A stretch of 64,000 nt of DNA from Candidatus Adlerbacteria bacterium (GCA_028286685.1 JAQBRA010000004.1:12898-76897); one strand, 5' to 3'. Shown: positions 2,830 to 37,245, counted from the first letter of the stretch. Notes: generated by a model from the sequence alone, not told the origin. Made by a program: numbers and translations.

Positions 2830-3116
2830 CCCTTGCCAGCCGCTACATCTACGCCATTACGTTTGCTATAGCCGCGACCGGCTTCCTTTTGCCGTTCTGG
2901 CCTTTGTGCGTTGTCGGCGTGCTTATAGCGGCGCTTTCAGGCCGCTATATTTTCGCCGTTGTTGTAGCGCTTCTTATCGATTTGGGACTGGGCATGCCGA
3001 CGGGCGTATTGCACTACCTCGTCCTGCCATTTACCGTGCTCGCGGTTATAGCGGCGCTTGCGCGCATTTTCGGCGCCGCTTACTTCTTGGACAAGACGCC
3101 CCTCGATAGGCTTTAA
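2826..3116 (+). CDS. mreD: MreD-like small polytopic membrane protein
   Basis: 96 aa, entirely hydrophobic helices. 4-nt overlap with mreC. Synteny with mreBC and PBP2. Confidence 0.55.
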   Translation: MTLASRYIYAITFAIAATGFLLPFWPLCVVGVLIAALSGRYIFAVVVALLIDLGLGMPTGVLHYLVLPFTVLAVIAALARIFGAAYFLDKTPLDRL

Positions 3117-4806
3117 TAGGTGGATGCTCCGCTGGTGGTTTAGGAAAGGCAAGATACGCTCGGAAATACATCCGGACGAAATTTTAATAGACTCCCAAAA
3201 CGTCTCGGACCTGGACCGCGACCAGTTCGAGGGCCGCATCGAGCGGCCGCTTTCCCGCCGGCAGCTGGTGGGCGCAGGGAGCGTCGTGGCCGTGGCAGTG
3301 CTGCTTCTGCTGGTGCGCGCCGGCAGCCTCCAAGTAGTGCATGGGCAGACGTATGCCGAGCAGGCCAAGAACAACCAGCTGACCGAGGAGACTATCTTTG
3401 CTGATCGCGGCACGATCGTCGACCGCAACGGCATCCCCTTGGCCTGGAACGAGCGCGACGAAATAGGCGATGATTTCGCCCGCCGGGCGTATGCCTCCAT
3501 GCGCGGGCTCGCCCATGCGGTGGGCTATACCAAGGCGCCTGCCAAGGACTCTTCCGGCAATTACTTCCGCACCGAGTTCGAGGGGCTCGACGGCGTCGAG
3601 AAGGCGTACAACGCAGAGCTAGGCGGCCAAAACGGGCTGCGCCTCACCGAGACAGACGCGCTTGGGAACGTTGTCTCGGAGGCGACGACGCGCGCGCCGG
3701 CGGCCGGCGCAGAGCTGCGGCTTTCTATCGATGCCAAGGTAACGCAGGGGCTCTACGACGTGCTGGCTAAGAACGCGGGCGCAGCGGGCTTCCAGGGCGC
3801 GGCGGGCGTCATTATGGATGTGCGCACCGGCGAGCTCTTGGCGCTTACCAGTTATCCCGAATACTCGCAGACCGCCATGGTCGAGGGCGACCGGGATTTG
3901 ATAGCCTCTTACAACACCGACAAGCGCCAGCCGTTCCTGGATCGCGCCGTAGACGGGCTCTATGCGCCGGGCTCTATCGTCAAGCCCATCATGGCTGCGG
4001 GCGCTATTTCCGACGGCATCATAGACGAATACAAGCAAATACTTTCAACGGGCTCCATTTCCATACCCAACCAGTACGATCCCAAAAATCCCACCCTATT
4101 CCGCGACTGGCGCGTCAACGGCTGGACCGACGCGCGCCACGCCATTGCGGTTTCCTCCGACGTGTACTTTTACTCCGTGGGCGGCGGCTACCAGGACCAG
4201 CGCGGCATGGGCATTGCCACTATCGACAAGTGGCTGCAGGCCTTCGGGTATGGGCAGGATGCGGGGCTCAAGGGCTTCTCCTCCAAGACCGGCACTATTC
4301 CGACTATCGACTGGAAAGCCAAGACTTTCCCGGACGATCCGACGTGGCGCCTCGGCAACACGTATCACACGGCGATAGGGCAGTTCGGCACGCAGGTCAC
4401 GCCGCTGCAGGCGGTGCGTACCGCAGTCGCCCTGGCCAACAGCGGCACGCTGCTCACGCCGACGCTTATAGCAAGCTCGACCCCGCAAGGCCAAAAGATC
4501 GACATCGACCCGCACGCTCTCCAGGTCGCCCGCGAAGGCATGCGCCTCGGCGTTACCGAGGGCATCGCCACAGGCGTCAAGCTCCCGTATGTCTCTGTTG
4601 CAGCCAAGACCGGCACTGCGCAGATCGGCATGAAGAACGAATACTGGAACGCCTGGATGATAGGCTTCTGGCCATACGAGAACCCCAAGTACGCCTTCGT
4701 AATGATCCTCGATCGGGCTCCCGCGCACACCTCGACCGGCGGAAACGTGGTCATGGCGCAGTTCTTCTCCTGGATGCACGAAAACGCGCCCGAATATCTG
4801 CAATAA
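3058..4806 (+). CDS. mrdA: penicillin-binding protein 2 (peptidoglycan D,D-transpeptidase, elongasome)
   Basis: SxxK (GSIVKP), SxN-like (VSSDVY) and KTGT (AKTGTAQ) active-site motifs. An alternative start at ATG 3124 is possible. Confidence 0.85.
   Translation: MRAFSAPLTSWTRRPSIGFNRWMLRWWFRKGKIRSEIHPDEILIDSQNVSDLDRDQFEGRIERPLSRRQLVGAGSVVAVAVLLLLVRAGSLQVVHGQTYAEQAKNNQLTEETIFADRGTIVDRNGIPLAWNERDEIGDDFARRAYASMRGLAHAVGYTKAPAKDSSGNYFRTEFEGLDGVEKAYNAELGGQNGLRLTETDALGNVVSEATTRAPAAGAELRLSIDAKVTQGLYDVLAKNAGAAGFQGAAGVIMDVRTGELLALTSYPEYSQTAMVEGDRDLIASYNTDKRQPFLDRAVDGLYAPGSIVKPIMAAGAISDGIIDEYKQILSTGSISIPNQYDPKNPTLFRDWRVNGWTDARHAIAVSSDVYFYSVGGGYQDQRGMGIATIDKWLQAFGYGQDAGLKGFSSKTGTIPTIDWKAKTFPDDPTWRLGNTYHTAIGQFGTQVTPLQAVRTAVALANSGTLLTPTLIASSTPQGQKIDIDPHALQVAREGMRLGVTEGIATGVKLPYVSVAAKTGTAQIGMKNEYWNAWMIGFWPYENPKYAFVMILDRAPAHTSTGGNVVMAQFFSWMHENAPEYLQ
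4770..4806. repeat. left copy of a 37-bp direct repeat, equal to the last 12 codons plus stop of mrdA
   Basis: ctggatgcacgaaaacgcgcccgaatatctgcaataa matches 6723-6759 in 36 of 37 positions. Confidence 0.9.
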
Positions 4807-4843
4807 TTCTGTATACGACTTGGTGGCACTTTTTACAAAAAAC

Positions 4844-4870
4844 CCGCCGAGTCGAAACTCAGCGGGTCAG
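4844..4870. terminator. bidirectional intrinsic terminator between mrdA (+) and the histidine phosphatase gene (-)
   Basis: aaaaaaCCCGCCGAGtcgaaaCTCAGCGGGtcagg: 9-bp stem (8/9 paired) flanked by A-rich and T-rich tracts. Confidence 0.6.
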
Positions 4871-4876
4871 GAATTT

Positions 4877-5548
4877 TTAAGTTCTAGATTCTCCGGATAG
4901 TCGGGTGATGGGGAGACCGTGCTGCCGGAGCGGCTTATTCAGGCTGTATGTCCCATCTATCTCCATCGTCAATATTCGGTATTCGCAGTTATCGAGATTA
5001 GCGAATGACTCGAACAGCTCTTCATTCCAGTCTAGGATTATTTTGAGCAGTACTCGGAACTCGAAGCCGTGCGAGAGAACAACAATATTGCATCCGGTAT
5101 CCCGTTGTATCTTGAATATCTTCTCCTTAAACTTTTCTAGCCTTTCGATCAGTTGTGCTGCACTCTCGCCGGTTGGAAAAGTGTAGCGCAGTACTCCGAC
5201 TTTATAGCGTTCAGCTTCGATCCCTGGGCGGTTCTCGGCAGTGATATGCCCCCAATCCTGCTTTACAATGAGGGGCTCGATTTCCACATTTGCATTAATG
5301 TGGTCGGGAAGCAGCGGAAGCACTATTTTGAGCGTTTGCACATTCCTGACGCCTGGAGACGTATAGAATCGGGTATCAGGGTTGCCGTTGAGAAGCTGGG
5401 CAAGTAAAGCCCCCAAGTTATGGGCCTGCTCGCGGCCTCTTTCGGTCAGTGGAATCTCAAGATCGCTCAAGACGTCGTAGACCCTATTGTCGACATCTTC
5501 CAACGACTCGGCATGCCGACAGATGATAATCCTAGGATTTCTTTCCAT
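4877..5548 (-). CDS. histidine phosphatase superfamily protein (phosphoglycerate-mutase-like)
   Basis: N-terminal RHAES (RHG-type catalytic His motif), consistent with histidine phosphatase family proteins. Lies in the low-GC islet. Start chosen at MERNPRIII; the ORF extends to 5584. Confidence 0.7.
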   Translation of the reverse strand: MERNPRIIICRHAESLEDVDNRVYDVLSDLEIPLTERGREQAHNLGALLAQLLNGNPDTRFYTSPGVRNVQTLKIVLPLLPDHINANVEIEPLIVKQDWGHITAENRPGIEAERYKVGVLRYTFPTGESAAQLIERLEKFKEKIFKIQRDTGCNIVVLSHGFEFRVLLKIILDWNEELFESFANLDNCEYRILTMEIDGTYSLNKPLRQHGLPITRLSGESRT

Positions 5549-5599
5549 GATGCGACCTTTCAGTGGTTTGGGGAGATATTTCAAGGTACACTCATTCTC

Positions 5600-6136
5600 A
5601 TGAGTGCCGTTTTACTGACCCTGTCTGATAAGGACATCTTCCCAAACACGCCGGATACGACCGGTACTGACTGGAAGGACCGTCCGACCGGCAAGGTTGT
5701 TCTCTTTAATGATAAGAACGAAATTGTCTTAGTAAGCAATAAGATTACTAATCTTTTTCTGCTACCCGGCGGCGGTATAGAGGAAGGCGAGGATATCGTA
5801 GAGGGCACAAAGCGCGAGTGCCGCGAAGAGACTGGTCACGAGATTGAGATCATCCACGAACTCGGTGTGACGGAAGACTACCGAGTCAGAGACAGTCGCC
5901 ATTGCATCAGCTATTGTTTCGCAGCAAAAGCACTTTCGCAGGGCCCGATCGCTCTCACTAAAGACGAAAGCGACATAGGTTTTTTTATGCAGTGGTTCTC
6001 CTTGGAAGACGCGGCGAAGCTGCTCGCCTCCCAAGAAGAGAAAGTTAGGCGGGGCGAAGTTGAGTTCTATAATACCTGCTTCAACATTGTCAGGGACTCA
6101 TTTTTTATCCGCCGCGCCCAGAAGCTACTCGCTTAA
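5600..6136 (+). CDS. NUDIX hydrolase
   Basis: Canonical Nudix box GGGIEEGEDIVEGTKRECREETG (GX5EX7REUXEEXGU). Start moved to the internal ATG at 5600 to avoid overlap with the divergent gene. Confidence 0.8.
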   Translation: MSAVLLTLSDKDIFPNTPDTTGTDWKDRPTGKVVLFNDKNEIVLVSNKITNLFLLPGGGIEEGEDIVEGTKRECREETGHEIEIIHELGVTEDYRVRDSRHCISYCFAAKALSQGPIALTKDESDIGFFMQWFSLEDAAKLLASQEEKVRRGEVEFYNTCFNIVRDSFFIRRAQKLLA

Positions 6137-6138
6137 CA

Positions 6139-6621
6139 CTAGCCTCCCTTGATTTTTCTGATAATCGAGCCCGTTGAGATTTCTTCTTCAGTATAACGGG
6201 GCAGTATTTGTATCTTTGTATCGGGCGAACTGGCTCTTACTTGTGCGAGTCTTTGCTGGAATCGGACCTCGTCCCCGGAGTTTTCCCCAAATACGATACT
6301 GCCCGGCTTCAATAATGAGAGCACGCGCGGACTGTTTGGGCTTACGCCTGCCAAATACACATAGTCGACACATCGCAGGGCTGCCACCATTGCGGCCCTT
6401 TGCCACTGGTTGATTATCGGACGGCTCGAATTCTTGTAGCCTCGTACATAGTTGTCCGAGAGCACCGCGACGACAAGCAGATTCTCGAGCGTAGCGGCAT
6501 ATTCGAGCAAGTGCAAATGGCCGACATGGATAAGATCGAATACCCCTCCCACCAGGCAAAAACTTTTACCGGGCGGCAGTAATTTCCTAAGGGCATGAGC
6601 GCTTCGAGGGACGCTTTTCAT
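6139..6621 (-). CDS. cytidylyltransferase-family nucleotidyltransferase (TagD/RfaE-domain-II-like, HxGH)
   Basis: GGVFDLIHVGHLHLLE, the (H/T)xGH motif of the PF01467 fold. AGGA ribosome-binding site 8 nt before ATG 6621. The longer ORF to 6756 runs into the duplicated mrdA tail and is rejected. Confidence 0.75.
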   Translation of the reverse strand: MKSVPRSAHALRKLLPPGKSFCLVGGVFDLIHVGHLHLLEYAATLENLLVVAVLSDNYVRGYKNSSRPIINQWQRAAMVAALRCVDYVYLAGVSPNSPRVLSLLKPGSIVFGENSGDEVRFQQRLAQVRASSPDTKIQILPRYTEEEISTGSIIRKIKGG

Positions 6622-6722
6622 GGTTGTTCCTTCTATTGTAGAGGTACAGGTTGAGAGGAATCTCAGCTGGGATGCATAATGGTATATTATTTGCATATGG
6701 TCAAATTCGTTTTTAAGAACGA

Positions 6723-6759
6723 CTGGATGCACGAAAATGCGCCCGAATATCTGCAATAA
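6723..6759. repeat. right copy of the 37-bp direct repeat (vestigial mrdA 3' end)
   Basis: ctggatgcacgaaaatgcgcccgaatatctgcaataa, one mismatch to 4770-4806. Confidence 0.9.
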
Positions 6760-6860
6760 GGCCTTTTCCGGCCCTTGTCCCGCTTGACTTGGGGCCCAAT
6801 TCGGCTAAACTAGTCTATCGAAGAAGCAGCTAACCCCCGCAAGGGGAATTTTAAATCCAC

Positions 6861-7319
6861 ATGGAAGAAATGATGTCCCAGGAGAAGTTCGAGGAGCTCA
6901 CGATAGAGCTTGAGAGCCTGCGCACGACCCGCCGCAAGGAGGTAGCCGAGCAGCTTGAGTACGCCCGCAGCCTGGGCGACCTCTCCGAAAACGCCGAGTA
7001 CCAGGAGGCGCGCGAAATGCAGTCCGCAGTAGAGGAGCGCATCGGCAAGCTCGAGAGCATCCTGAAGTCCGCCAAGATCGTCAAGGGCGGCAAGGGTGAC
7101 GGCGTGGGCATGGGCTCGACCGTTACCGTGCAGAAAATCGGCGGCGAAGACAAGCACACCTACACCATCGTCGGCGCCGAGGAAGCCGATATCATCAAGG
7201 GCAAGGTTTCCTACCACTCTCCGCTGGGCGCAGCGCTCCTCAATAAGAAAAAGGCGGACGAGTTCTCCTTCTCGACCCCGCGCGGCGTGCAGAAGTACAA
7301 AATACTTAAAATAGATTAA
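6861..7319 (+). CDS. greA: transcription elongation factor GreA
   Basis: N-terminal coiled-coil (…LESLRTTRRKEVAEQLEYARSLGDLSENAEYQEARE…) and a C-terminal FKBP-like domain. Confidence 0.9.
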   Translation: MEEMMSQEKFEELTIELESLRTTRRKEVAEQLEYARSLGDLSENAEYQEAREMQSAVEERIGKLESILKSAKIVKGGKGDGVGMGSTVTVQKIGGEDKHTYTIVGAEEADIIKGKVSYHSPLGAALLNKKKADEFSFSTPRGVQKYKILKID

Positions 7320-7330
7320 GCAGTAGATAG

Positions 7331-7360
7331 AAAAATCCCCGGACATACAGTCCGGGGATT
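7331..7360. terminator. bidirectional terminator between greA and the outer-membrane protein gene
   Basis: aaaaaTCCCCGGACatacaGTCCGGGGAtttt. Confidence 0.65.
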
Positions 7361-7386
7361 TTCGATTCCGCCAGCAGAGGAGCTGG

Positions 7387-8109
7387 CTAGAACCGAAAGT
7401 TGAGGCCTGCGCGAACGATATTTTCGCGCAGTTTGGTCGAGTAGTCGGCAGAATTGCCGCGACTGTCGGTCATGCTGCTTGAGCCGCCATTGAGATCGAT
7501 GTGTAGATATTCAATCTTGGCCGACCAGTCGTTGCCTATTGCCCATTCCACCCCGGCACCGAACGCCGGGCCGAAAGCCATGTGCTTTTCAGTCGTTGTC
7601 GACTGGTAGCCGCCGACCGAGAACCGATCGGTCACGGTCAGGCCTCCGTAGGCTATGCCGGCGGTGATGTAGGGCAGAAAGGAGCCCATGCTGTAGCCGA
7701 GACGTCCGCGGGTAGTGCCAAACCAGTGGGCCTCGGTATCGATATCGCTGGTCGCGGTAAAGATGCAGCCGGCGCATCGGTCGATCGAGCTGTTGCCCGA
7801 GAAGCCGGCCCAATTGAGATCGGTCTCGAAGCCCCATACGATGTTGCCCCGCATCCAGTTGGCGCCGGCTGTGATGCCGACCAGCGGCCCGTTGGTGCTG
7901 ATCGAATCGAGATCGAATCCTGTGGCCGTCTGCTTAGTATTGCCGAAGCCGTATCCGGCTGTGGCACCGATGTAGAAGCCTTCCCAGCGATCCCTGAAAG
8001 CCGCCGGTGCCGGCGATTTATACCCGGGTCCCACATCAGCCGCCTGAGCGGCCGAGAAGGGCAAACTACTTAAGGCCAGTGTGGCCAGAGCCAAAAAGCG
8101 AGTACGCAT
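7387..8109 (-). CDS. outer-membrane beta-barrel protein, Omp25/Omp31 (OmpA-like barrel) family
   Basis: Signal peptide ending AAQAAD, alternating amphipathic beta-strands, C-terminal …AGLNFRF with terminal Phe. Confidence 0.8.
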   Translation of the reverse strand: MRTRFLALATLALSSLPFSAAQAADVGPGYKSPAPAAFRDRWEGFYIGATAGYGFGNTKQTATGFDLDSISTNGPLVGITAGANWMRGNIVWGFETDLNWAGFSGNSSIDRCAGCIFTATSDIDTEAHWFGTTRGRLGYSMGSFLPYITAGIAYGGLTVTDRFSVGGYQSTTTEKHMAFGPAFGAGVEWAIGNDWSAKIEYLHIDLNGGSSSMTDSRGNSADYSTKLRENIVRAGLNFRF

Positions 8110-8181
8110 CGAAAACCTCGTTGTTTGCGTGTGAGTCCGCGCCGCTCAGAATGAGCAAACGGGAGGACTGTGTCCTTCATG

Positions 8182-8210
8182 AATGTAATACGTTATTGAA
8201 GATTTGTCAA
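8182..8210 (-). promoter_or_regulatory. sigma70-type promoter of the outer-membrane protein gene
   Basis: Minus strand reads TTGACA-17 nt-TACATT. The extended cTTGACAAAt recurs at other promoters in the window. Confidence 0.55.
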
Positions 8211-8259
8211 GAAAAAAGAAAACCCCAAGCCTAAGCCTGGGGTCCGGAGCGCGTCGCGC

Positions 8260-8556
8260 TCAATGTTCTGGGTAGTCTTCCGGAATGATTCCGTCCGGGA
8301 AGAAGAATTCGACCTGCTGGTTGTTCTTCACGGCGATGAACTTGAGGTTGCCGAGGCAGGTTGCCTCGCCATTCTCGATCGCCAGCAGCAAAGATTCCTT
8401 GCTGCAGCATTTTCGAGCGAAGTCGCTCAGCAGCGACGTTCCGCGCAGTTTCTTGAGCATCTTGCCGACGTGCGTGTGCACGCTGGTTTTCGTTGCGGAT
8501 TTCGTTGCCGCTTCTGCTTGAGCTACCATTTCTTTTCGTCCTGTTATCGCCTGCAC
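8260..8556 (-). CDS. hypothetical protein
   Basis: 98-aa ORF with a GC-rich hairpin (8224-8246) downstream. No recognisable motif. Confidence 0.35.
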   Translation of the reverse strand: MQAITGRKEMVAQAEAATKSATKTSVHTHVGKMLKKLRGTSLLSDFARKCCSKESLLLAIENGEATCLGNLKFIAVKNNQQVEFFFPDGIIPEDYPEH

Positions 8557-8720
8557 CCCGCAGGCTAGGTTTGTTCTACTAGGACGCCTGTTTACTCAAC
8601 TTAACGCAACCCTTTACACGACGGTTATACCCGCTCTGATAAAATGGTACCAGTTTATGCAAATCCGTCAAGTCCCCGTCTGAAGTATTAAAAGCCCCTA
8701 AATAACGCTATAGTAGGGCT

Positions 8721-10271
8721 ATGTTTTGGGCAGACCGCATAGCAGGGGAGATTGAGGCGAAGTTCGGCAAACAGGCCGAGCCCCTTTTGATACGGGACGA
8801 AAAGACTCTTTCCGGCCGCGTGCACGTAGGTTCCTTCCGGGGCGTCGCCATACATGGCGTCATCAGCGAAGCTCTTCAAGAGCAGGGGACACCCAACGTG
8901 TTTAGGTACGAATTTAACGACTACGACCCCATGGACGGGATACCGTCGTACCTGCCGCAAGGGGAGTACGAGCAGTATCTGGGCCTGCCGCTTAAAAATA
9001 TCCCGAGCCCGGAGCCGGGGTTTGATAACTTTGCCGAATACTACGGCGCAGAATTTAAGGCGGTCATAGAAGGCGCGGGCTTTGCTCCGGAGTTTTACCG
9101 CAGCAGCGAGCTGTATCTGTCAGGAAAGATGGACGGCGTCATACGCGAAGCCCTTGAGGGCGCAGCTGACGTGCGCCGCATATATAAAGAAGTCTCCGGT
9201 GGCACGCGCGAGGATACCTGGCTGCCCTTAAGCGTCATTTGCCCCACCTGCGGGAAACTTTCGACTACCCGCGCGAGCGACTTTGACGGCGAGACGGTTG
9301 CGGTCGAGTGCCGCGACTTGGACTGGGTAAAGGGCTGCCATTTTGCAGGCCGCGTAAGCCCGTTTGGAGGCTCTGCCAAGCTGCCCTGGAAGGTCGAGTG
9401 GCCCGCCAAGTGGAAGGTGCTGGGCGTTAAGGTAGAGGGTGCCGGCAAGGACCATTCGACCAAGGGCGGCTCGCGCGATGTGGCCAGCCATATTTCCAAA
9501 GAAGTATTCAAATACGAGCCGCCGTTTGACGTGCCGTACGAGTTTTTTCTCATAGGCGGGCAAAAGATGTCCTCGTCCAAAGGGCAGGGCTCGAGCGCCA
9601 AGGAAATATCCGACCTGCTGCCGGCCAAGCTATTCCGCCTCGCGCTGTTGTCCAAGGATATCAGTCAGGCATTCAACTTCGATCCGGAGGGAGACACGAT
9701 ACCCGTGCTCTACGATCTCTACGACAAGCTGGCCGAGGCGTACAAAGCCGGGGTTAAAGACGATTACACCCGCCTGTTCCTCTACTCGCATCCCTCTACC
9801 GCGAGGCCAAACCTCACGGTACCGGAATTTTTGATGCGCTTCAGCCAGGTGGCGTTTATCGTCCAGATGCCGCACATGGATTTAGAGAAGGAGGCGGAAA
9901 TTGTGAAAGGCGCGCCGCTCACTGATGCGGACAAGGTAGAGCTCCAAGAGCGCGCCGCTTACGCCAAGCACTGGCTTGGCGCTTATGCGCCCGAGAAGTT
10001 CGTCTTCAAGCTCCAGGAGTCGCTGCCGGAGGTTGCACAGAGTCTTCCTGAAACTGCCAAGGCTGCGCTTAAGGCACTGCACGACTTCATTGCAGCCAAA
10101 GACGCAATGCCGTCCGGCGAGGAGCTCCACGCCGAGCTGCATAAATCGAAAGAATTCAAGGCGATCTACCTGGCATTCTTGGGCAAAGAGAGCGGCCCTA
10201 AGGCCGGATGGTTCCTGTCGGTCCTCGATCGCGATTTCGTACTAAAAAGGCTTGCCTCGGCGAGCGCATAG
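8721..10271 (+). CDS. lysK: lysyl-tRNA synthetase, class I (archaeal-type LysRS)
   Basis: 516 aa. HVGS (HIGH-like) and KMSSSKG (KMSKS) motifs in a class-I architecture. Confidence 0.85.
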   Translation: MFWADRIAGEIEAKFGKQAEPLLIRDEKTLSGRVHVGSFRGVAIHGVISEALQEQGTPNVFRYEFNDYDPMDGIPSYLPQGEYEQYLGLPLKNIPSPEPGFDNFAEYYGAEFKAVIEGAGFAPEFYRSSELYLSGKMDGVIREALEGAADVRRIYKEVSGGTREDTWLPLSVICPTCGKLSTTRASDFDGETVAVECRDLDWVKGCHFAGRVSPFGGSAKLPWKVEWPAKWKVLGVKVEGAGKDHSTKGGSRDVASHISKEVFKYEPPFDVPYEFFLIGGQKMSSSKGQGSSAKEISDLLPAKLFRLALLSKDISQAFNFDPEGDTIPVLYDLYDKLAEAYKAGVKDDYTRLFLYSHPSTARPNLTVPEFLMRFSQVAFIVQMPHMDLEKEAEIVKGAPLTDADKVELQERAAYAKHWLGAYAPEKFVFKLQESLPEVAQSLPETAKAALKALHDFIAAKDAMPSGEELHAELHKSKEFKAIYLAFLGKESGPKAGWFLSVLDRDFVLKRLASASA

Positions 10272-10290
10272 GAGTGCGTCCCTAAAATAT

Positions 10291-10326
10291 AAAGCCCGCC
10301 CCGAGTAGTCTCGGAGGCGGGCGTTC
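10291..10326. terminator. bidirectional intrinsic terminator after lysK
   Basis: aaaGCCCGCCCCGAGtagtCTCGGAGGCGGGCgttctt. Confidence 0.6.
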
Positions 10327-10348
10327 TTGTATGGCCTTGCGGGCCTTA

Positions 10349-10621
10349 TTACTTGATTCTCATTCCGGCGGTGGAGCTGGAACGGATATCTGGAGCAACT
10401 TTCGTCGAGGCACTGGGGTCGTTGGACCCTAAGCGCAACCAGGAAAATGGCCGCCATAACAATTTTGTAAAGAACTTTTCGCGCGGCTTGAGCAGGTACC
10501 CTTGATGGTAAACCAGGTCCAGGCAGGAGGTGGAGCAGAACTGGCGCCCCCGGCGCTCAGCGCGGACCATGCCGAAACCCCGGTTGCACCCAAGACGGCT
10601 GCATGTCTTACGTTCACACAT
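10349..10621 (-). CDS. hypothetical Cys-rich (zinc-ribbon-like) protein
   Basis: N-terminal CxxxCSRLGCN…FCSTSC cysteine pattern. Shares the 10291-10326 terminator. Confidence 0.3.
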   Translation of the reverse strand: MCERKTCSRLGCNRGFGMVRAERRGRQFCSTSCLDLVYHQGYLLKPREKFFTKLLWRPFSWLRLGSNDPSASTKVAPDIRSSSTAGMRIK

Positions 10622-10765
10622 CTCTTATTCCTTCCTTGTTTAAGTTTTTGGCCCTCACGCAAAACTCATACAACTCTCTGTACCTGTTGTACGCCTTAAG
10701 CTTTGACGTGTCAATTGCCTGAAGCTTACAGGAAGGGGATAAGTCCCTATTTGTTGGAGCCGAAA

Positions 10766-10792
10766 AAGTAAAAAGCGGGTATCCATTCTGGA
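10766..10792 (-). terminator. terminator of the small membrane protein gene
   Basis: Minus strand GCGGATATCCagaatGGATACCCGC followed by a U-tract. Confidence 0.55.
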
Positions 10793-10823
10793 TATCCGCT
10801 TTGTCGAGCGTGTCTCTTGCTGC

Positions 10824-11024
10824 TTATGCAGTAACCCAGACCGCCCAAGTGAAGAAAAGTGCCGCGACGGATACGAGCAGTCCGGCGCCGAGTAGGATGG
10901 TTTTGATCCTGCAGGAGCGCTGATTTTTAGTCATCCGCTTTCGGCACCGCTTGATGCTGTCTTGCGCCGCGAACTTCGCAGTCATAACCGCCTCAAAGGT
11001 CTTGTCGTTCATGATCGTCTCCAT
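10824..11024 (-). CDS. small membrane protein (66 aa, single transmembrane helix)
   Basis: Has its own promoter and terminator. C-terminal hydrophobic helix ILLGAGLLVSVAALFF. Start chosen at METIMNDK. Confidence 0.5.
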   Translation of the reverse strand: METIMNDKTFEAVMTAKFAAQDSIKRCRKRMTKNQRSCRIKTILLGAGLLVSVAALFFTWAVWVTA

Positions 11025-11084
11025 TGGTTGTGGGAGACGCCTTTCCCTTAGTTTCCCAAACTTTTTTATACTTACTCTATTACC

Positions 11085-11113
11085 AGTATACACCCAGATA
11101 AGCCTTTTGTCAA
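11085..11113 (-). promoter_or_regulatory. sigma70-type promoter for the 10824-11024 gene
   Basis: Minus strand TTGACA-17 nt-TATACT. Confidence 0.55.
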
Positions 11114-11208
11114 GGTCTGTAAAACCCTTTGGTATAGGGCTTTTTTGACGAATACCCACAGCCCTGGCGACTCGTGTGCCAAAGGGGGGAAATGTGGATA
11201 AATACACA

Positions 11209-11259
11209 AGTTAAGTGGGGTAGGGTGGCGTACAATGTCTAGTAGTGGGATGAAGTGGG
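11209..11259 (+). promoter_or_regulatory. mra promoter region with MraZ-operator-like GTGGG direct repeats
   Basis: GTGGGgtagg GTGGCgtaca … GTGGGatgaa GTGGGataga at 10-bp periodicity, overlapping a TACAAT -10 element. Confidence 0.5.
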
Positions 11260-11291
11260 ATAGACCCACCCCACGAACTTCCGAAAAAACC

Positions 11292-11726
11292 ATGCTGATC
11301 GGCGAATACCTCCACACTCTCGACCCCAAGAAGCGCTTGTCGCTTCCTGCCAAATTCCGCAAGGAAGTGGGCCGCAAGGTGGTGATTACGCGCGGGCTCG
11401 ACTCCTGCCTCTTCATGTTTCCGGAGAAGGCGTGGATTAAAATCGCCCAGAAGCTCTCGGACCTGCCGGTAGGGCAGGCCGACACTAGGGGCATGGCCCG
11501 CTTCCTCTTGGCGGGAGCGGTCGAGACCGAGGTAGACGGCGCAGGCCGCATCCTCATCCCGGAGTACCTCAAGGACTTTGCCGAGCTGCGCTCGCGGGTG
11601 GTGTTGGCGGGCGTGTCCGACCGGATCGAGATCTGGAACGAGAAGACCTGGGAGGAGTACAAGCGCAAGATCGAGAAGGGAGCAGACCAGATGGCGCAAG
11701 CGCTGGGTAACATGGGGATCCTGTAA
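11292..11726 (+). CDS. mraZ: transcriptional regulator MraZ
   Basis: MLIGEYLHTLDPKKRLSLPAKFRKE… with duplicated SpoVT/AbrB-like halves (DxxxR). First gene of the dcw cluster. Confidence 0.9.
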   Translation: MLIGEYLHTLDPKKRLSLPAKFRKEVGRKVVITRGLDSCLFMFPEKAWIKIAQKLSDLPVGQADTRGMARFLLAGAVETEVDGAGRILIPEYLKDFAELRSRVVLAGVSDRIEIWNEKTWEEYKRKIEKGADQMAQALGNMGIL

Positions 11727-11729
11727 CAT

Positions 11730-12719
11730 ATGACTACTTTTTCTTTTACGCCCGTTCGTGCATCACACCGCTCCCGTCGAGAGGAGGGCGGCGAGGGGCA
11801 TGAGCGGGCGCAAGAGCGAAAGGATGAGCCGCACGTATCGGTCATGACGGATGAAGTTTTGGCCGCACTCGAAGTAAAGAAGGGCGAGGTGGTGGTGGAC
11901 GGCACTGCAGGTGCGGGCGGCCACAGCGAGGCCTTGGCTCATGCTGCAAAAATAAAACTGATCTCGCTTGATGCCGACCCGGATGCCGTAGCGGCGGTGC
12001 AGAAGCGCCTCGGCAAGAAGGGCGCCGTCATTAACGCCAACTTCGGCGATCTTTTGGCGGTCGCCGAGAAGACCGGCATTACTTTTATAGACAAGGCGCT
12101 GTTTGACCTGGGCTGGAACCGCGGCCAGCTTACGGCCGGCCGCGGGTTTTCCTTCATGTATGACGAGCCGCTCTCGATGAGCTACGGCCCGAAGGCCCGC
12201 TCCGGCTTTACGGCCGCCGAGATGCTCAATACTTTTACCGAAAAGGCCCTGGCCGACATCTTCTTTGGCTACGGCGAGGAGCGCTATGCGCGCCGCATCG
12301 CCAAGGTGATAGTGGAGCGCCGCGAAGAGAAGCCTCTTGCGACCACGCTTGAGCTTGTGGAGCTTATCAAGGACTCGGTGCCCGCGGCCTACCGCCGGGG
12401 GCGGCTCCACCCGGCGACGCGCTCCTTCCAGGGGCTGCGCATTGCGGTCAACGACGAGCTGGGGGCGCTAGAGCAGGGGATTGAGGCAGCTTGGAAACTC
12501 CTAGCCCCGGGCGGACGCATCGCAGTCATTACCTTCCACTCAATTGAGGATCGGGCCGTCAAGAGATTATTTGCGAAGTTCGCCAAGGGAGGGGGCGGGG
12601 AAAAAGGAAGGCTCTTATACAAAAAACCCCTCGTCGCTTCCGCCGCTGAAATTAAACGCAATCCGCCGAGCCGATCCGCCAAGCTTCGCGCAATCGAAAA
12701 AATATGCCCACAAGAATAA
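11730..12719 (+). CDS. rsmH: 16S rRNA (cytosine1402-N4)-methyltransferase RsmH/MraW
   Basis: …HVSVMTDEVLAAL…VVDGTAGAGGHSEAL SAM-binding motif. An N-terminal extension of ~35 aa makes the true start uncertain. Confidence 0.85.
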   Translation: MTTFSFTPVRASHRSRREEGGEGHERAQERKDEPHVSVMTDEVLAALEVKKGEVVVDGTAGAGGHSEALAHAAKIKLISLDADPDAVAAVQKRLGKKGAVINANFGDLLAVAEKTGITFIDKALFDLGWNRGQLTAGRGFSFMYDEPLSMSYGPKARSGFTAAEMLNTFTEKALADIFFGYGEERYARRIAKVIVERREEKPLATTLELVELIKDSVPAAYRRGRLHPATRSFQGLRIAVNDELGALEQGIEAAWKLLAPGGRIAVITFHSIEDRAVKRLFAKFAKGGGGEKGRLLYKKPLVASAAEIKRNPPSRSAKLRAIEKICPQE

Positions 12720-13027
12720 ACCCACTGACGCTCTACCGCCTCTATGTCCGCCGCGTGGTGGCCGCTCTGGGCGCCGCTATCGCAGTCTGCGCGTTCATGT
12801 ACGGATTCTTTCTGCTTGAGGCGGTCTCGCATGCGGCAAGCCAGGCCCAGGCGCGCCGCGAAGTCGGCCAGCTTTCTTCCAAAGTGGGAAAGCTCCAGGC
12901 GCAGTACCTCGCCGCAACCAAGGCTCTTACTCCCGAGCGCGCCCGCGCGATGGGCTTCGTCGAGCCGGCGCACGTCGCTACCGTGTATGCGGACGCGCAT
13001 GCGCTCACGCTCTCGGCTAACCGGTAG
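12704..13027 (+). CDS. ftsL: FtsL-like cell-division protein
   Basis: Single transmembrane helix (VVAALGAAIAVCAFMYGFFLL) plus coiled-coil. Sits between rsmH and ftsI. Confidence 0.5.
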   Translation: MPTRINPLTLYRLYVRRVVAALGAAIAVCAFMYGFFLLEAVSHAASQAQARREVGQLSSKVGKLQAQYLAATKALTPERARAMGFVEPAHVATVYADAHALTLSANR

Positions 13028-13042
13028 TACAATAAGGGAAGT

Positions 13043-14578
13043 ATGTCGTCCCGATTTGTCCTGCGCGTCCGGCTTTTGACCGCGCTTCTGATACTGGTGG
13101 CCCTCGTCATTGTCGGCAAGCTCTACTTTTTGCAGGTGGTGCACGGACAGGACTACGCTCGCCGCGCGGACGCCCAGATTATTGCTACGCACAACCCGCT
13201 GCTTAACCGCGGCGCAATTTACTTTACGGACAAGGACGGCACGCCGATCTTGGCCGCGACCCTGCGCGAGCTGGGCGACGCTTCTACGACTTCCGAAGAC
13301 GGCAATCACCAGCGCTACTATCCGGGCGGTTCCTTGTCGGCCCGGACGCTCGGCTTTGTGGCCTACAACAATGACGACGAGCAGAAGGGACGCTACGGCC
13401 TGGAGCGATATTACGACCCGGTCCTGGGCCGCTCCTCCGATAACCTGTACCGCAACTTCTTCGTCGAGCTCTTCGGCGCGGCGCAGGACGTGCTGAGCGG
13501 CAAAGGCCAGAAAGGCGACCTCGTAACCACTATCGAGCCGTCGGTGCAGGGTGAGCTTGAGCGAACCCTCCTGGAGTACGAGGAGACCTGGCACCCCTCG
13601 CTCTCGGGCGGCATCGTCATGGATCCGCACACGGGCGCCATTGTCGCCATGGCCGTATCGCCGACCTTCGATCTCAACCATTTCAACAAGGAAGACGATC
13701 CGACCATTTACGCCAATCCCATAGCCGAAAACGTCTACGAGCTCGGCTCGATCATGAAGCCGCTTACGGTCGCTGCCGGGCTCGACTCGGGCAGCATTAC
13801 TGAAACTACGACCTATAACGACACCGGCTGCATCACGGTCGACACCAAGAAGATCTGCAACTTCGACGCGGAGGCGCGCGGCGTCATTCCCGTGCAGGAA
13901 ATCCTCAGCCAGTCCCTAAACGTCGGCGCCTCGTTCGTGGCAACCAAGATGGGCCCTGAAATAATGCGCGACTACTTTTTAAACAAGTACAAGTTCAACG
14001 AGGAAACGGGCATCGACCTGCCGGGCGAGGTGCGCGGGCTTACCCAGAATCTCGAGGACGGCCGGGCGGTGGAGTTCGATACGGCGTCCTTCGGCCAGGG
14101 CATTGCCGTAACGCCCATTGAGATGGCGCGGGCGCTGGCGACCCTCGCCAACGGCGGCAAGCTGGTAACGCCGCACTTAGGGGCCGCCATCAAGGAAGAG
14201 AGCGGGATTACCCGCGAGCTGGGCTGGGGCGAGCCCGCACAGGTGCTAAAGCCGCAGACCGCTACTGCCATTAGCCGCATGCTGACCCAGGTGGTCGACA
14301 CGGCGCTCGCCAATGGCGACCTAAAGCTCGAGCGCTACAGCATTGCAGCCAAGACCGGCACGGCCCAGATTGCGGACCCCTCTGGCGGCGGCTACTACAA
14401 GGACCGGTACCTGCACAGCTTCTTCGGGTACTTCCCGAGCTATGACGCCAAGTTCCTGGTATTCCTGTTTGCGGTGGAGCCGCGCGGGGCACCCTTTGCC
14501 TCCCAGACCTGGGCCCCGCCGTTTAAGTCCTTGACCCAGTTTCTGATCAACTACTACAACATCCCGCCGGACCGGTAA
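13043..14578 (+). CDS. ftsI: peptidoglycan D,D-transpeptidase FtsI (PBP3-like)
   Basis: SxxK (GSIMKP), SxN (SQSLNVG) and KTGT (AKTGTAQ) motifs. N-terminal transmembrane anchor. Confidence 0.85.
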   Translation: MSSRFVLRVRLLTALLILVALVIVGKLYFLQVVHGQDYARRADAQIIATHNPLLNRGAIYFTDKDGTPILAATLRELGDASTTSEDGNHQRYYPGGSLSARTLGFVAYNNDDEQKGRYGLERYYDPVLGRSSDNLYRNFFVELFGAAQDVLSGKGQKGDLVTTIEPSVQGELERTLLEYEETWHPSLSGGIVMDPHTGAIVAMAVSPTFDLNHFNKEDDPTIYANPIAENVYELGSIMKPLTVAAGLDSGSITETTTYNDTGCITVDTKKICNFDAEARGVIPVQEILSQSLNVGASFVATKMGPEIMRDYFLNKYKFNEETGIDLPGEVRGLTQNLEDGRAVEFDTASFGQGIAVTPIEMARALATLANGGKLVTPHLGAAIKEESGITRELGWGEPAQVLKPQTATAISRMLTQVVDTALANGDLKLERYSIAAKTGTAQIADPSGGGYYKDRYLHSFFGYFPSYDAKFLVFLFAVEPRGAPFASQTWAPPFKSLTQFLINYYNIPPDR

Positions 14579-14634
14579 CTACCCTGAAAAGCGGGCAGGG
14601 CGGGGTAGGGTAGAATATATAAAACAGAAAAAAC

Positions 14635-15942
14635 ATGCGCACTATTTTCAAATCGATCATCGTTTGGATCCTGCAGATGGAGGCCAAGGCAGTATTGCGC
14701 AAGTATCAGCCAAAGGTGGTTGCTATTACCGGCAGCGTCGGCAAGACCTCGACCAAGGATGCGGTGTACGCCGTGCTTTCTAAGAAATTCCACGTTCGCA
14801 AAAGCGAAAAGAGCTTTAATTCAGAAGTGGGCGTGCCGCTTACGATACTGGGCTTGGGCAACGCCTGGGGCAACCCCTTGCACTGGCTGCAGAACATCAT
14901 CGACGGCCTCTCTCTTATACTGACTACGCACAGCTATCCGGAGTGGCTGGTCTTGGAAGTGGGGGCCGATCGGCCCGGCGACATCAAGTCGCTTTCCTCG
15001 TGGATCAAGGTAGACGTGGCGATTATTACGCGGCTTCCGGAAGTGCCGGTGCATGTGGAGTTCTTTGACTCGGTAGAAGCGGTCATTGAGGAAAAGGCCT
15101 CGCTCATGGACGCGGTGCGTCCTGGAGGCGCGATACTTCTATATGCCGATGACGAGCGCACCAAGAAATTGCAGCAACGCCTGCCGGCGCCCGATGCGCG
15201 CATCGTGCTGTTCGGCTTTAGCGACGAGACCGACGTGTGGGCGAGCAAGTTTGAAGTCGTGCGCGAGGAAGGGAAGGAGTCCTGGCCGATAGGCATGCGG
15301 GCGAATATTTCTGTCGAGGGCGAGTCGGCGCCCGTGCAGATCATCGGTTCTCTGGGCACCCATGCCTTTCTGTCGGCGGTAGCCGCAGCGGCTGCGGGCC
15401 ATGTGCTCGGGGTGAGCCTTCCTGATATTGTCGCGGGGCTCGAGGGTTATGAACCGCCTCCGGGCCGCGTGCGGATATTGCCCGGCATCAAGGATACGCT
15501 GATTCTCGACGATACTTATAACGCCTCGCCGGCGGCGACCATAGCTGCGCTCGATGCGCTCAAGCTGACGGCCCCCAAGGGCCGCGCCATTGCCGTCCTG
15601 GGTGACATGTTGGAACTTGGCCGCGTGTCGGTAGAAGAGCATCGCAAGGTGGGGGCCAAGGCGGCGCAGGTTGCCGATCTTTTGATAGTGGTGGGCGTGC
15701 GGGCGCGCGATATTGCCATGGGGGCACTCGACAATGGCATGAAGGACGAGAATATCTTGCAATTTGAGGACTCTCAAAAGGCCGGTGCCGAGCTCCAGAA
15801 TATGCTTCTGGATCATGACGCCATTTTGGTCAAAGGCTCGCAATCCGTGCGCATGGAGCGCGTGGTCGAGGAAATTATGCAGGAGCCGGAGCGGGCAGGG
15901 GAGCTTTTAGTGAGACAAGACTTAGAGTGGAAAAAGCGCTAG
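14635..15942 (+). CDS. murF: UDP-MurNAc-tripeptide--D-Ala-D-Ala ligase MurF
   Basis: Mur-ligase P-loop VVAITGSVGKTSTKD and C-terminal Mur ligase domain. murE is absent between ftsI and murF. Confidence 0.85.
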   Translation: MRTIFKSIIVWILQMEAKAVLRKYQPKVVAITGSVGKTSTKDAVYAVLSKKFHVRKSEKSFNSEVGVPLTILGLGNAWGNPLHWLQNIIDGLSLILTTHSYPEWLVLEVGADRPGDIKSLSSWIKVDVAIITRLPEVPVHVEFFDSVEAVIEEKASLMDAVRPGGAILLYADDERTKKLQQRLPAPDARIVLFGFSDETDVWASKFEVVREEGKESWPIGMRANISVEGESAPVQIIGSLGTHAFLSAVAAAAAGHVLGVSLPDIVAGLEGYEPPPGRVRILPGIKDTLILDDTYNASPAATIAALDALKLTAPKGRAIAVLGDMLELGRVSVEEHRKVGAKAAQVADLLIVVGVRARDIAMGALDNGMKDENILQFEDSQKAGAELQNMLLDHDAILVKGSQSVRMERVVEEIMQEPERAGELLVRQDLEWKKR

Positions 15943-16003
15943 GTGGGACAAAGCCCTAACGATTTGCTATTATCGGATAAGTAACATGTTCTAAGGGGTA
16001 GAA

Positions 16004-16207
16004 ATGAACCGTGCAAGCGAAAAAGCTATCCGGCGCAGCTGGGAGCATGACCTTAGGAGTCATCCTCTGGGCAGCATCCAAACTGGTCCGAGCAAGGAGG
16101 AGCTCCGAGCGCAGGCAGAAGCGCTTACTGTCGGCGTTACGGTAACGGTCTGCAGGGCCTCGTACAGAAAATCGGACCTCCGTAAACGAGCAGGCGGCTA
16201 TAAATAA
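16004..16207 (+). CDS. hypothetical small basic protein
   Basis: 67 aa. AAGGGG ribosome-binding site upstream. Followed directly by a perfect terminator. Confidence 0.3.
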   Translation: MNRASEKAIRRSWEHDLRSHPLGSIQTGPSKEELRAQAEALTVGVTVTVCRASYRKSDLRKRAGGYK

Positions 16208-16210
16208 GAA

Positions 16211-16240
16211 GATAGCGCGGACACGGTCCGCGCTTTTCTT
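16211..16240 (+). terminator. intrinsic terminator
   Basis: aGCGCGGACacgGTCCGCGCttttctttt. Confidence 0.65.
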
Positions 16241-16320
16241 TTGGCCCAAATTGTCGTACATTGTTCTGGTACGTTCGGTATGGCCTGCGATTAATTAAGT
16301 CGGGTCTAAGGTAGAAATAG

Positions 16321-16392
16321 GGCCCTATCGTCTAATGGTTAGGACAGTTCCCTCTCACGGAACAAATCGGGGTTCGAATCCCCGTAGGGTCA
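16321..16392 (+). tRNA. tRNA-Glu (anticodon CUC)
   Basis: Hand-folded cloverleaf: acceptor GGCCCTA/TAGGGTC (one G-U pair), D-arm with GG, anticodon stem GTTCC/GGAAC, loop CTCTCAC, T-arm CGGGG-TTCGAAT-CCCCG, discriminator A. Overall resemblance to E. coli tRNA-Glu. Confidence 0.85.
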
Positions 16393-16400
16393 CACGATCG

Positions 16401-16428
16401 AAAAACTCCGGCTTTGGCCGGGGTTTTT
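16401..16428 (+). terminator. terminator after tRNA-Glu
   Basis: aaaaaCTCCGGCtttgGCCGGGGttttt. Confidence 0.6.
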
Positions 16429-16526
16429 CGTATCGCCGTGATGCCTGGGAGGCAGATTCGAAAGGCGCAGGCACGACGGTGCCGAGCCGGGGTCGCGAGA
16501 TTTTCTAGCAGGAAAATACTTGTGAC

Positions 16527-16546
16527 CGAATCCCCGTAGGGTCACA
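16527..16546 (+). repeat. 20-nt direct repeat of the tRNA-Glu 3' end (att-like scar)
   Basis: cgaatccccgtagggtcaca is identical to tRNA positions 16375-16394. Followed by hairpin terminators at 16566-16590 and 16704-16740 and a further ggtcacaaaag copy at 16688. Confidence 0.7.
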
Positions 16547-16892
16547 AAAGACACAAACACCTGCCCTGCGGCAGGTTTTGTGCTTTTGTGACAGGCGCAG
16601 CGATGTTTTGCACTGGCAAAACCGCGAGCCGGGGCCGGCAAGCAAAATCGCTGACGAGCGATTTTGACTTGTGGCCAGGCTGACGGGCGGTCACAAAAGA
16701 AAAACCCGGCGCCTTCGTGGCGCCGGGTTCGGTTTTATGCAAATTGCGCCTGCGGCGACGGCACTACGGGCGTAAGCACGACCGACGTAGTCGCTCTCTT
16801 CCCGACTTTTCAGGAAATATAATTTCCGACGGTAAATGAAAAGAGAAAGGCCCGCGCAAATGGTGCGCGGGCCTCATGCTTCTGCGTGCAGA

Positions 16893-34914: not shown

Positions 34915-35193
34915 TTAGTTTAGATGCCGCTTGCGTTCCTGGCTTTCTCTGAGGAGCGTGCGCATGGAGTCGACTTCTTCGGCCGTTAAGTCCAGCCGTT
35001 CGATATACAGGTCAGCTTGCTCGCGAGTAATTTTGTTCTCGTCAACCCAGCCATCGAGTATGCCCAGCAACGAGCACTTAACGAGCATTTCGGTTTTTTC
35101 TTCAGATAAGGCAAGAAGTCGCCCTTCCCCCACAATGCCTTTGACAGAAAGCTCTCTTATAAGAGCCATTATCTTTGGCGATAGCTGAACCAT
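34915..35193 (-). CDS. hypothetical protein
   Basis: ORF with the terminator downstream. Start chosen at MVQLSPKIMALI. Confidence 0.35.
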   Translation of the reverse strand: MVQLSPKIMALIRELSVKGIVGEGRLLALSEEKTEMLVKCSLLGILDGWVDENKITREQADLYIERLDLTAEEVDSMRTLLRESQERKRHLN

Positions 35194-36236: not shown

Positions 36237-36282
36237 TTATGTATACTATCCGTATGTAACCCATAAGCCGTGCGCCACAACC

Positions 36283-37109: not shown

Positions 37110-37245
37110 GCCCCATGAAGCGCCACTGGTACCGCTCCTCAGCAGAGATACCGCCTGCCCTGCCCCGCTCTCCGGGGAGACGGGGGCCAGGAAAGAAGAC
37201 GATCATCCTGTGGGAGGAAGGGAGAGACGGTCCCCGAGCATACAA

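Follow-up and report, generated by a model that had tools for sequence, protein, structure and literature searches.

tRNA-targeting islands and tycheposon-like cargo islands are inserted by integrases and carry partial copies of tRNA 3' ends, and the integrative mobile elements exploiting Xer (IMEX), like the pdif modules of Acinetobacter, are recombinase-less units with short flanking sites that are moved by host XerC/D. Cis-mobilizable elements (CIMEs), as defined in the streptococcal literature on integrative and conjugative elements (ICEs) as well as integrative and mobilizable elements (IMEs), have lost the genes for integration and transfer and keep attL and attR (PMC5704250). In Firmicutes they are described as decay products of ICEs or IMEs that reside at the att site of a related ICE (PMC5704250). 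The subject of this analysis is a 1916-bp islet at positions 4807-6722 of a 64,000-nucleotide stretch of Candidatus Adlerbacteria bacterium DNA (GCA_028286685.1, JAQBRA010000004.1:12898-76897), the whole of which is referred to as the window. The islet follows the 3' end of mrdA, the gene of penicillin-binding protein 2 (PBP2), and carries a triad of genes for a nucleotidyltransferase, a NUDIX hydrolase and a histidine phosphatase. On balance, we favor the reading that 4807-6722 was acquired laterally as a non-autonomous integrative cassette and entered by a Campbell-type crossover catalyzed in trans, with cargo for the handling of a nucleotide-activated metabolite.

Among named concepts the CIME appears to be the closest, and tRNA-targeting islands and IMEX/pdif modules may be viewed as functional analogs. 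Like a CIME, the islet keeps attL/attR-like repeats, its target gene is reconstituted, and no integration or transfer genes lie inside. Unlike the CIMEs of Firmicutes, it is a minimal 1.9-kb triad that occurs at many unrelated loci of Patescibacteria with repeats that differ or are absent. No parental element was found for the cassette, and viral contigs scanned with the phosphatase and the nucleotidyltransferase yielded no carrier, with matches only at 32% identity. What sets it apart from these concepts is the minimal unit, its intact recurrence at many unrelated loci, the varying or absent repeats and the lack of a known parental element; no description of the triad or of its mobility in Patescibacteria was found in the literature searched.

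The last 37 nucleotides of mrdA, including the TAA stop codon (4770-4806, CTGGATGCACGAAAACGCGCCCGAATATCTGCAATAA), recur at 6723-6759 with one mismatch, exactly as an earlier note on this DNA had described. The sole difference between the two copies (36/37 identical) is a C to T change at position 16 of copy 2, which falls on a third codon position and is synonymous in the mrdA frame (AAC/AAT, Asn). None of 100 dinucleotide-preserving shuffles of the window yielded two matches to the 37-mer. Identity between the copies stops exactly at the mrdA stop codon, beyond which copy 1 continues with TTCTGT and copy 2 with GGCCTT. Both repeat characteristics of an integrated islet are thus present, namely a copy at each end and a copy 1 that completes the target gene. 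The exact bases common to the copies form runs of only 15 and 21, split by the mismatch, which makes an assembly-graph loop an unlikely origin of the structure, and the independent Logan assembly of SRR13312974 is 100% identical across window positions 4603-16350 (11.7 kb). The two antisense open reading frames (ORFs) beginning MQIFGR(V/I)FVHP that had been listed earlier are both present. They arise trivially from the repeat, and the second only extends the nucleotidyltransferase ORF upstream in frame; the homologs of that ORF all begin MKSVPRS. The features of the locus are as follows.

3058-4806, plus strand: target gene mrdA (PBP2; Pfam Transpeptidase, 2.9e-49, and PBP_dimer), an intact ORF that terminates in repeat copy 1
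4770-4806, plus strand: direct repeat copy 1, functional, the last 37 nt of mrdA including TAA
4807-4840, no strand: cassette-side junction spacer that does not align with the native mrdA-greA spacer of relatives
4841-4868, minus strand: terminator of the histidine-phosphatase gene, a 12-bp GC-rich hairpin followed by a T-run
4877-5548, minus strand: histidine-phosphatase superfamily protein (branch 1), 223 aa, RHAES motif (PF00300, E=2e-21)
5549-5599, no strand: 51 nt separating the divergent phosphatase and NUDIX genes, with putative promoters for both
5600-6136, plus strand: NUDIX hydrolase of 178 aa whose Nudix box, GGIEEGEDIVEGTKRECREETG, is intact (PF00293, E=1.9e-17)
6139-6621, minus strand: cytidylyltransferase-fold nucleotidyltransferase (HxGH ... 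ISTG), 160 aa (PF01467, E=5e-15)
6676-6704, minus strand: sigma-70-like promoter of the nucleotidyltransferase gene, TTGACC-17-CATTAT, kept at other loci
6723-6759, plus strand: direct repeat copy 2, the displaced non-coding mrdA 3' end, adjoining native downstream DNA
6760-6860, plus strand: native mrdA-greA intergenic DNA with a greA promoter-like site (6784-6811), alignable to the empty-site spacer of relative L003
6861-7319, plus strand: greA, the native right-hand neighbor of mrdA (Pfam GreA_GreB_N, GreA_GreB)

The composition and codon usage of the islet are foreign to the host. Its GC content is 0.49, compared with 0.62 in the left flank and 0.57 in the right; the earlier note was correct in calling the islet lower in GC than its flanks, but its figure of ~45% was a little too low. 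The GC content at third codon positions (GC3) of the three islet genes is 0.56-0.59 versus 0.67-0.84 in 19 host genes, and in codon usage they lie at a distance of 0.20-0.27 from the host pool, versus 0.08-0.15 for host genes. The three gene families that had been proposed were all confirmed by hidden Markov model search, with 77 bits for PF00300, 64 for PF00293 and 56.3 for PF01467 against gathering thresholds of 21.7, 21.1 and 21, respectively. The genes fill the islet completely, leaving no space for a recombinase, and none is present. The ORF listing contains no pseudogene ORFs and leaves no extra non-coding DNA within the islet, a repeat search of the islet gave no terminal inverted repeats at its ends, and Rfam at E<=1 gave no match within 4700-6900. 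The hairpin at 4841-4868 is kept in all DNA-alignable cassette copies, and since an A-run and a T-run flank it on opposite sides, it probably terminates mrdA too. Judged from its sequence, the cassette would be a self-contained expression unit with its own promoter, a divergent region and a strong terminator.

The flanking genes are in the order mreB-mreC-mreD-mrdA, then greA and, further on, lysS (class I)-mraZ-mraW-ftsI-murE. The closest genomes are metagenome-assembled genomes (MAGs) of Patescibacteria that are Adlerbacteria-like, some of them labeled Saccharibacteria, and mrdA homologs at 64-82% identity are present in L002-L005. In L003 (PBP2 77% identical) greA begins ~200 nt after mrdA with no duplication, and in L004 and L005 (PBP2 64%) the gap is ~100 nt; mrdA and greA are contiguous in these three relatives, which represent empty sites. 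Beyond copy 2, the window sequence can be aligned to the greA promoter region of the empty sites, and copy 2 is therefore the displaced original mrdA end. Neither a relative with the repeat and no insert nor a native GC content and codon usage across the islet was seen. The core of the earlier claim, an att-like duplication around a foreign islet devoid of a recombinase, is supported by the empty sites, the composition and the gene content. A different insert of 3.1 kb (L002 11753-14893), native in GC, occupies the same junction in L002 (PBP2 82%), which indicates that mrdA-greA is a recurrent site of gene gain. Its cargo, a GTP-cyclohydrolase-II/OMP-decarboxylase fusion (558 aa) and a guanylate-kinase-like protein, is flanked by two paralogous Zn-ribbon (Yippee-like) proteins, and no flanking repeats of the L002 insert were found. 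We note as a side observation that the L002 cargo at this hotspot again concerns nucleotide metabolism.

The triad recurs intact and in the same order, nucleotidyltransferase (+), NUDIX hydrolase (-), histidine phosphatase (+), in 11 distinct contexts in Patescibacteria (all contigs inspected) and is a fixed unit in every one of them. The order holds down to 56% nucleotidyltransferase identity, and nucleotidyltransferase homologs at 48-87% identity are almost all from Patescibacteria. The cassette lies in the following contexts, given by the neighbors on its two sides.

L097: mrdA and greA
L009: a contig of a MAG with an empty mrdA-greA site
L010-12: hypothetical gene and pilin-like gene
L013-16: DHODH-tRNA-Ile and recG
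L099: secY and adk, within the spc ribosomal operon
L101-105 (Vogelbacteria): tig and clpP
L106-107: DUF6176 and UCP032817-like genes
L108: histidine kinase and tRNA-synt_1b
L113: fba and the contig end
L114: amidohydrolase on the first side
L100: a further context

The DNA block kept between contexts extends from ~6711 (~10 nt upstream of the -35 box) to the terminator at ~4839, nearly the whole islet. The cassette GC is 0.05-0.10 under that of the flanks in 6/10 contexts and equal to it in 4/10. Integrase, resolvase and transposase domains are not listed within ~5 kb of any copy in the 11 contexts. A secY fragment duplication or repeats around the secY-adk copy were looked for in L099 and none were found, nor were reciprocal empty sites of the other cassette contexts found within the window. 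In a metagenome-contig scan with the nucleotidyltransferase alignment, generic RfaE-II-like proteins dominated because the pattern FDL[IL]HVGH was too general, and the single close locus was L017. The best reading of these data is that the triad is a laterally moving unit without a mobility gene of its own. Separately, contigs L009, L097, L098, L100 and L113 stop 20-190 nt from a cassette edge, an anecdotal observation that would fit presence/absence or multi-context polymorphism within communities.

The repeats that flank foreign DNA at a gene 3' end, and the tiny att-bounded inserts at a tRNA-Glu gene of the window (see below), would also agree with a decayed remnant of a larger element, whether genomic island, prophage or IME, that lost its integrase. 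Such a remnant would be a CIME in the strict sense, attL and attR being kept and the integration and transfer genes lost (PMC5704250). We regard this origin as improbable. What the repeats bracket is precisely the triad from promoter to terminator, with 11-34 nt left over per end and none of the pseudogene ORFs or extra non-coding DNA of a decaying element. The same minimal unit is present in 11 contexts with no integrase or fragments of one within 5 kb, and repeated independent decay to the same three genes is unlikely.

It is scarcely credible that the islet arose through faulty assembly or binning, or that the triad is a core operon inherited vertically whose apparent mobility stems from the poor gene-order conservation of the candidate phyla radiation (CPR). 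The data are indeed metagenome assemblies, several contigs end close to the cassette edge (~120 nt), and cassette GC equals flank GC in four contexts. Against such an origin, the second assembly is identical over 11.7 kb, 15 and 21 exact shared bases are too few for an assembly-graph loop, and rearrangement alone cannot produce a duplicated mrdA end. The empty site in three relatives, the foreign GC3 and codon usage, and the interruption of secY-adk and tig-clpP by the cassette likewise speak against it.

By sequence comparison, the nucleotidyltransferase of the triad groups with ECT/TagD/RfaE-II enzymes and not with NMNAT. Among NCBIfam models RfaE domain II (TIGR02199) ranks first with 73.7 bits, below the equivalog cutoff of 181.5, and NMNAT models reach 15-18 bits (E=1.6e-3 to 8e-3). 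A 30-sequence nucleotidyltransferase profile matched only ECT (3e-24), 3glv, TagD, CCT and Fom1-type cytidylyltransferases in the PDB, the families represented being ethanolamine-phosphate, glycerol-3-phosphate and choline-phosphate cytidylyltransferases; no NMNAT, NadD or PPAT structure was matched by this profile at E<=1e-3. PHROG 7878 (heptose-1-P adenylyltransferase family) matches at 3.6e-18. The enzyme resembles RfaE/HldE-II, ECT, TagD and CCT in its HxGH and ISTG motifs and in its best profile matches, and differs from RfaE/HldE-II in being a stand-alone protein of 160 aa that lacks a kinase domain and scores far below the equivalog cutoff. We know of no partnership of a NUDIX hydrolase and a histidine phosphatase in the ADP-heptose, CDP-glycerol or CDP-ethanolamine pathways. 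The pairing of a PF01467-fold nucleotidyltransferase with a Nudix hydrolase is reminiscent of NadM-Nudix proteins; here, in contrast, the two are separate convergent genes and not a fusion, and a histidine phosphatase is foreign to that pathway. A role in NAD/ADP-ribose salvage of the NMNAT-Nudix type, which the earlier note had offered as speculation, is therefore unsupported, since both the profile and NCBIfam favor ECT/TagD/RfaE-II. Its broader proposal of nucleotide or nucleotide-sugar enzymes as cargo holds by the confirmed Pfam families.

The NUDIX protein has only generic PDB and NCBIfam matches (DIPP, MutT and one ADPRase at ~5e-6). The best PDB matches of the histidine phosphatase are PspA and fructose-2,6-bisphosphatase at ~1e-5, with no NCBIfam equivalog at cutoff. 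PADLOC gave no defense-system assignment, the only match being a weak one of the NUDIX protein to PDC-S07 at 2e-6. By homology, the nucleotidyltransferase would make a nucleoside-diphosphate-linked phospho-alcohol or sugar (CDP-X or ADP-X) from a nucleoside triphosphate and X-phosphate, the NUDIX enzyme would split this product into nucleoside monophosphate and X-phosphate, and the histidine phosphatase would then release X. The best-supported view of the triad is that it may constitute a small synthesis/turnover loop for one nucleotide-activated metabolite, the substrate being a predicted one.

The history of the mrdA-greA site bears on how the cassette arrived. In L097 the cassette lies directly after the mrdA stop codon, and no decayed second repeat copy above shuffle level was found on the greA side. 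The window and L097 cassettes differ by ~19% at the DNA level, to be compared with 36/37 identity between the window repeat copies. The window, L002, L003 and L097 lie at roughly equal distances from one another (GreA 89-95%, MraZ 92-95% and LysS 64-82% identity) and the window is not the sister of L097; the cassette thus occupies mrdA-greA in two non-sister lineages. In a lineage at least as close to the window as L097 the site is empty and the cassette is elsewhere: the MAG of L003 carries it on contig L009 (whole-genome shotgun prefix CAYHLQ01; 87-90% amino-acid identity) despite its empty mrdA-greA. Either the window insertion is recent and independent, or the site was vacated and refilled, and both readings require site-directed gain or precise loss.

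With the cassette right after the mrdA stop codon and no second copy, L097 also has the configuration needed in a donor if host homologous recombination were responsible. A ~2-kb fragment from a relative with the cassette after mrdA would then have been taken up, circularized and integrated via the 37 nt; the repeat would be no att site but a by-product of spread by homology among relatives whose locus is already occupied. We hold this route to be rather unlikely as the explanation, though a serious contender. The repeat ends at the stop codon, where homology between donor and recipient would end, and a lone synonymous third-position difference is what one would expect of related strains. The window encodes RecR and RmuC, the window ORFs scanned and the neighborhoods of the copies gave no recombinase, and DNA-uptake machinery is common in Patescibacteria. 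On the other hand, the first colonization of secY-adk, tig-clpP and tRNA-Ile is left unexplained, 37 bp is near the lower limit for RecA-dependent exchange, and the end of the fragment must fall by chance within ~10 nt of the cassette promoter block. The tRNA ends described next weigh against it as well.

The cassette of L013-16 adjoins tRNA-Ile(TAT), and a 40-nt segment at L013 positions 4812-4851 is repeated at 6902-6941. This repeat consists of 25 nt of the tRNA-Ile 3' end, from the T-arm, plus 15 nt, and its far copy is located 7 nt past the cassette terminator; the local alignment score is 28 versus a maximum of 11 in 500 shuffles. The L013 duplication is what integration into a tRNA gene classically leaves behind, and it is a second, independent duplication of a target 3' end. 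In L113 a partial tRNA-Ile-like 3' end stands directly behind the fba stop codon and ~60 nt ahead of the cassette promoter, with no full tRNA there, and in L114 another partial tRNA 3' end stands ~70 nt before the promoter. Partial 3' ends that start at the T-arm, as in L013 and L113, are typically left by integrases and argue against host homologous recombination. The T-arm bracket in L013, the partial ends in L113 and L114, and the mini-inserts at tRNA-Glu liken the cassette to tRNA-targeting islands. It differs from them in that no integrase lies in or beside its copies, the window target is protein-coding, and the unit is far smaller.

Two further contexts contain repeats of a different kind. 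In L009 the cassette lies between the copies of a 13-nt repeat whose positions correspond to the window junctions (0/60 shuffles reached its score); this repeat is not counted as a target duplication because its left copy aligns with sequence that is internal to the cassette in the window. In L106 a 73-nt repeat (3861-3933 and 6844-6916, 94.5% identity) brackets the triad and two further genes, contains the palindrome GTTCAGATGTTCTGAAC and precedes two UCP032817-like paralogs (28% protein identity). It looks like a promoter/operator common to the two paralogs and is ambiguous. A nested 17/20-nt repeat (3718-3737 and 4859-4878) comes after the APH and DUF6176 stop codons.

Target-site duplication by a transposase-like or casposase-like enzyme with a long stagger would explain why both repeat copies are target-derived in an element without its own recombinase. 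We consider it very improbable, as terminal inverted repeats are lacking at the islet ends, no transposase was found, and the end of the repeat at a stop codon would be a coincidence; the lengths also vary (37 nt in the window, 40 nt in L013, none elsewhere), unlike those made by a single transposase. A DDE transposon, insertion sequence or miniature inverted-repeat transposable element was rejected for the same lack of terminal inverted repeats and a duplication of 37 nt, 40 nt or none.

The window tRNA-Glu(CTC) region (16321-16700) contains tandem mini-inserts, each bounded by a copy of the tRNA 3' end. The copies are as follows.

16374-16393: copy 1, in the tRNA gene
16527-16546: copy 2, CGAATCCCCGTAGGGTCACA
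near 16684-16699: shorter copy 3, GGTCACAAAAGA

A 132-nt insert lies between copies 1 and 2, and a ~140-nt element between copies 2 and 3. The 132-nt insert has a homolog immediately upstream of the L114 cassette (32/33 and 24/26 nt). The second is a non-coding element of ~140-150 nt that is also present in L013 (window 16547-16687 and L013 4837-4985, ~85-90% identical), downstream of different tRNAs; in L013 it sits inside the repeat-bracketed segment and adjoins the cassette. Three hairpins are predicted for it, and eight pairs are kept via two-sided changes as far as two sequences can show, for example AAAATCGC/GCGATTTT versus GAGTTTGC/GCAAACTC. The element has no Rfam match and may be an undescribed structured RNA or an arm of an integrative element. 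When the islet ends were compared with the tRNA-associated mini-elements, only promoter and terminator were similar.

For the favored reading, in which the cassette was integrated by a crossover catalyzed in trans, the following course can be proposed. The incoming DNA would be circular and would carry a 37-nt copy of the mrdA 3' end. A single Campbell-type crossover between this copy and the chromosomal mrdA 3' end would regenerate an intact mrdA ending in copy 1 and displace copy 2 to a position beside the untouched greA promoter. This geometry explains the identity that ends at the stop codon, the intact mrdA and greA promoter, and the restorable empty site. Recombination between the copies would excise the cassette and leave an empty site as in the relatives, with the predicted sequence ...ATATCTGCAATAA joined to GGCCTTTTCCGG; the predicted circle junction would read ...TTTTTAAGAACGA joined to CTGGATGCACG...CAATAA followed by TTCTGTATACG.

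Because the cassette encodes no recombinase, the crossover would be catalyzed in trans, either by a trans-acting recombinase or by host homologous recombination, and the former is preferred. The preferred catalyst would be a site-specific recombinase of the integrase type encoded elsewhere, as for cis-mobilizable elements. This preference rests on the T-arm-to-3'-end tRNA copies in L013, L113 and L114 and on the tRNA-Glu mini-inserts of the window, one of which is homologous to DNA beside the L114 cassette.

Several observations weigh against this reading. Host homologous recombination accounts for the window equally well. Most contexts are without a detectable repeat (L010, L097, L099, L101 and L108). 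Where repeats are found they differ in sequence between loci (mrdA versus tRNA-Ile) and stand at opposite cassette ends relative to the target, the cassette being inverted in the window compared with L013; one fixed attP would thus be insufficient, and at least two att specificities are needed. The 37-mer has no evident inverted-repeat core typical of tyrosine-recombinase sites, no recombinase is present among ~30 further ORFs of the 64-kb window, and no excised or circular form of the cassette was observed. As to the cargo, all NCBIfam equivalog models are far below cutoff for all three enzymes.

The recombinase-less cassette with its short flanking repeats resembles IMEX elements and pdif modules. 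It differs from them in that the 37-mer is the mrdA 3' end rather than an evident 28-bp dif-like site (11-6-11), and in that the repeats vary between loci. A dif-like reading of the 37-mer was considered; by eye, the putative arms have at most 6-7/11 matches, with weak partial palindromy.

A wider proposal is put forward tentatively, and as it stands we think it unlikely. The triad would be the cargo of an undescribed class of ~1.9-kb, recombinase-less, promoter-to-terminator cassettes that insert right after the 3' ends of essential genes and tRNAs (mrdA, secY, tig, fba and tRNA-Ile), restore their targets and are moved by a trans system common to the tRNA-Glu mini-inserts. CPR/Patescibacteria have tiny genomes, and little is known of how they gain genes. 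Here a fixed unit of three enzymes lands between gene neighbors that rank among the most conserved in bacteria (mrdA-greA, secY-adk and tig-clpP) without harming them. If a dedicated trans-acting mechanism is at work, it would provide a new handle on horizontal transfer in CPR and possibly a gene-insertion tool, and if the cassette class with its trans system exists, it would represent a general route of gene gain for streamlined, host-dependent genomes. The strict co-inheritance of the three enzymes defines an uncharacterized small pathway for a nucleotide-activated metabolite that is biochemically testable.

Other observations in the window concern regions outside the islet. Between greA and lysS, an outer-membrane beta-barrel protein with a signal peptide (PF13505) is encoded at 7387-8109 (minus strand). 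The gene is absent there in L002, L003 and L097, its codon-usage distance of 0.19 is somewhat atypical, and it has the appearance of a further strain-specific insertion. At 61296-62441 (minus strand) there is a weak CsgG-like match (PF03783, E=1.4e-06); outer-membrane-type proteins are unexpected in a Patescibacteria genome. A second low-GC stretch at 35000-38800 (0.43-0.49) contains a 73-nt direct repeat (35481-35553 and 38242-38314, 74% identity, 2761 nt apart) and genes for an FkbM-type methyltransferase, a retroviral-type aspartyl protease and a DUF5678 protein, together with ORFs without family and no recombinase. This stretch could be a further repeat-flanked islet; alternatively, its repeat could represent promoters of paralogs. 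A 28-nt repeat (26/28; 4598-4625 and 14343-14370) is common to mrdA and ftsI at the corresponding position of these transpeptidase genes. Logan contig L001 ends at window position 4603, within the mrdA copy of this repeat, which is therefore probably the site of an assembly break. Finally, a 224-nt tandem-like repeat (25311-25534 and 25599-25822, 70% identity, 288 nt apart) lies in a 261-aa ORF with a GC content of 0.65.

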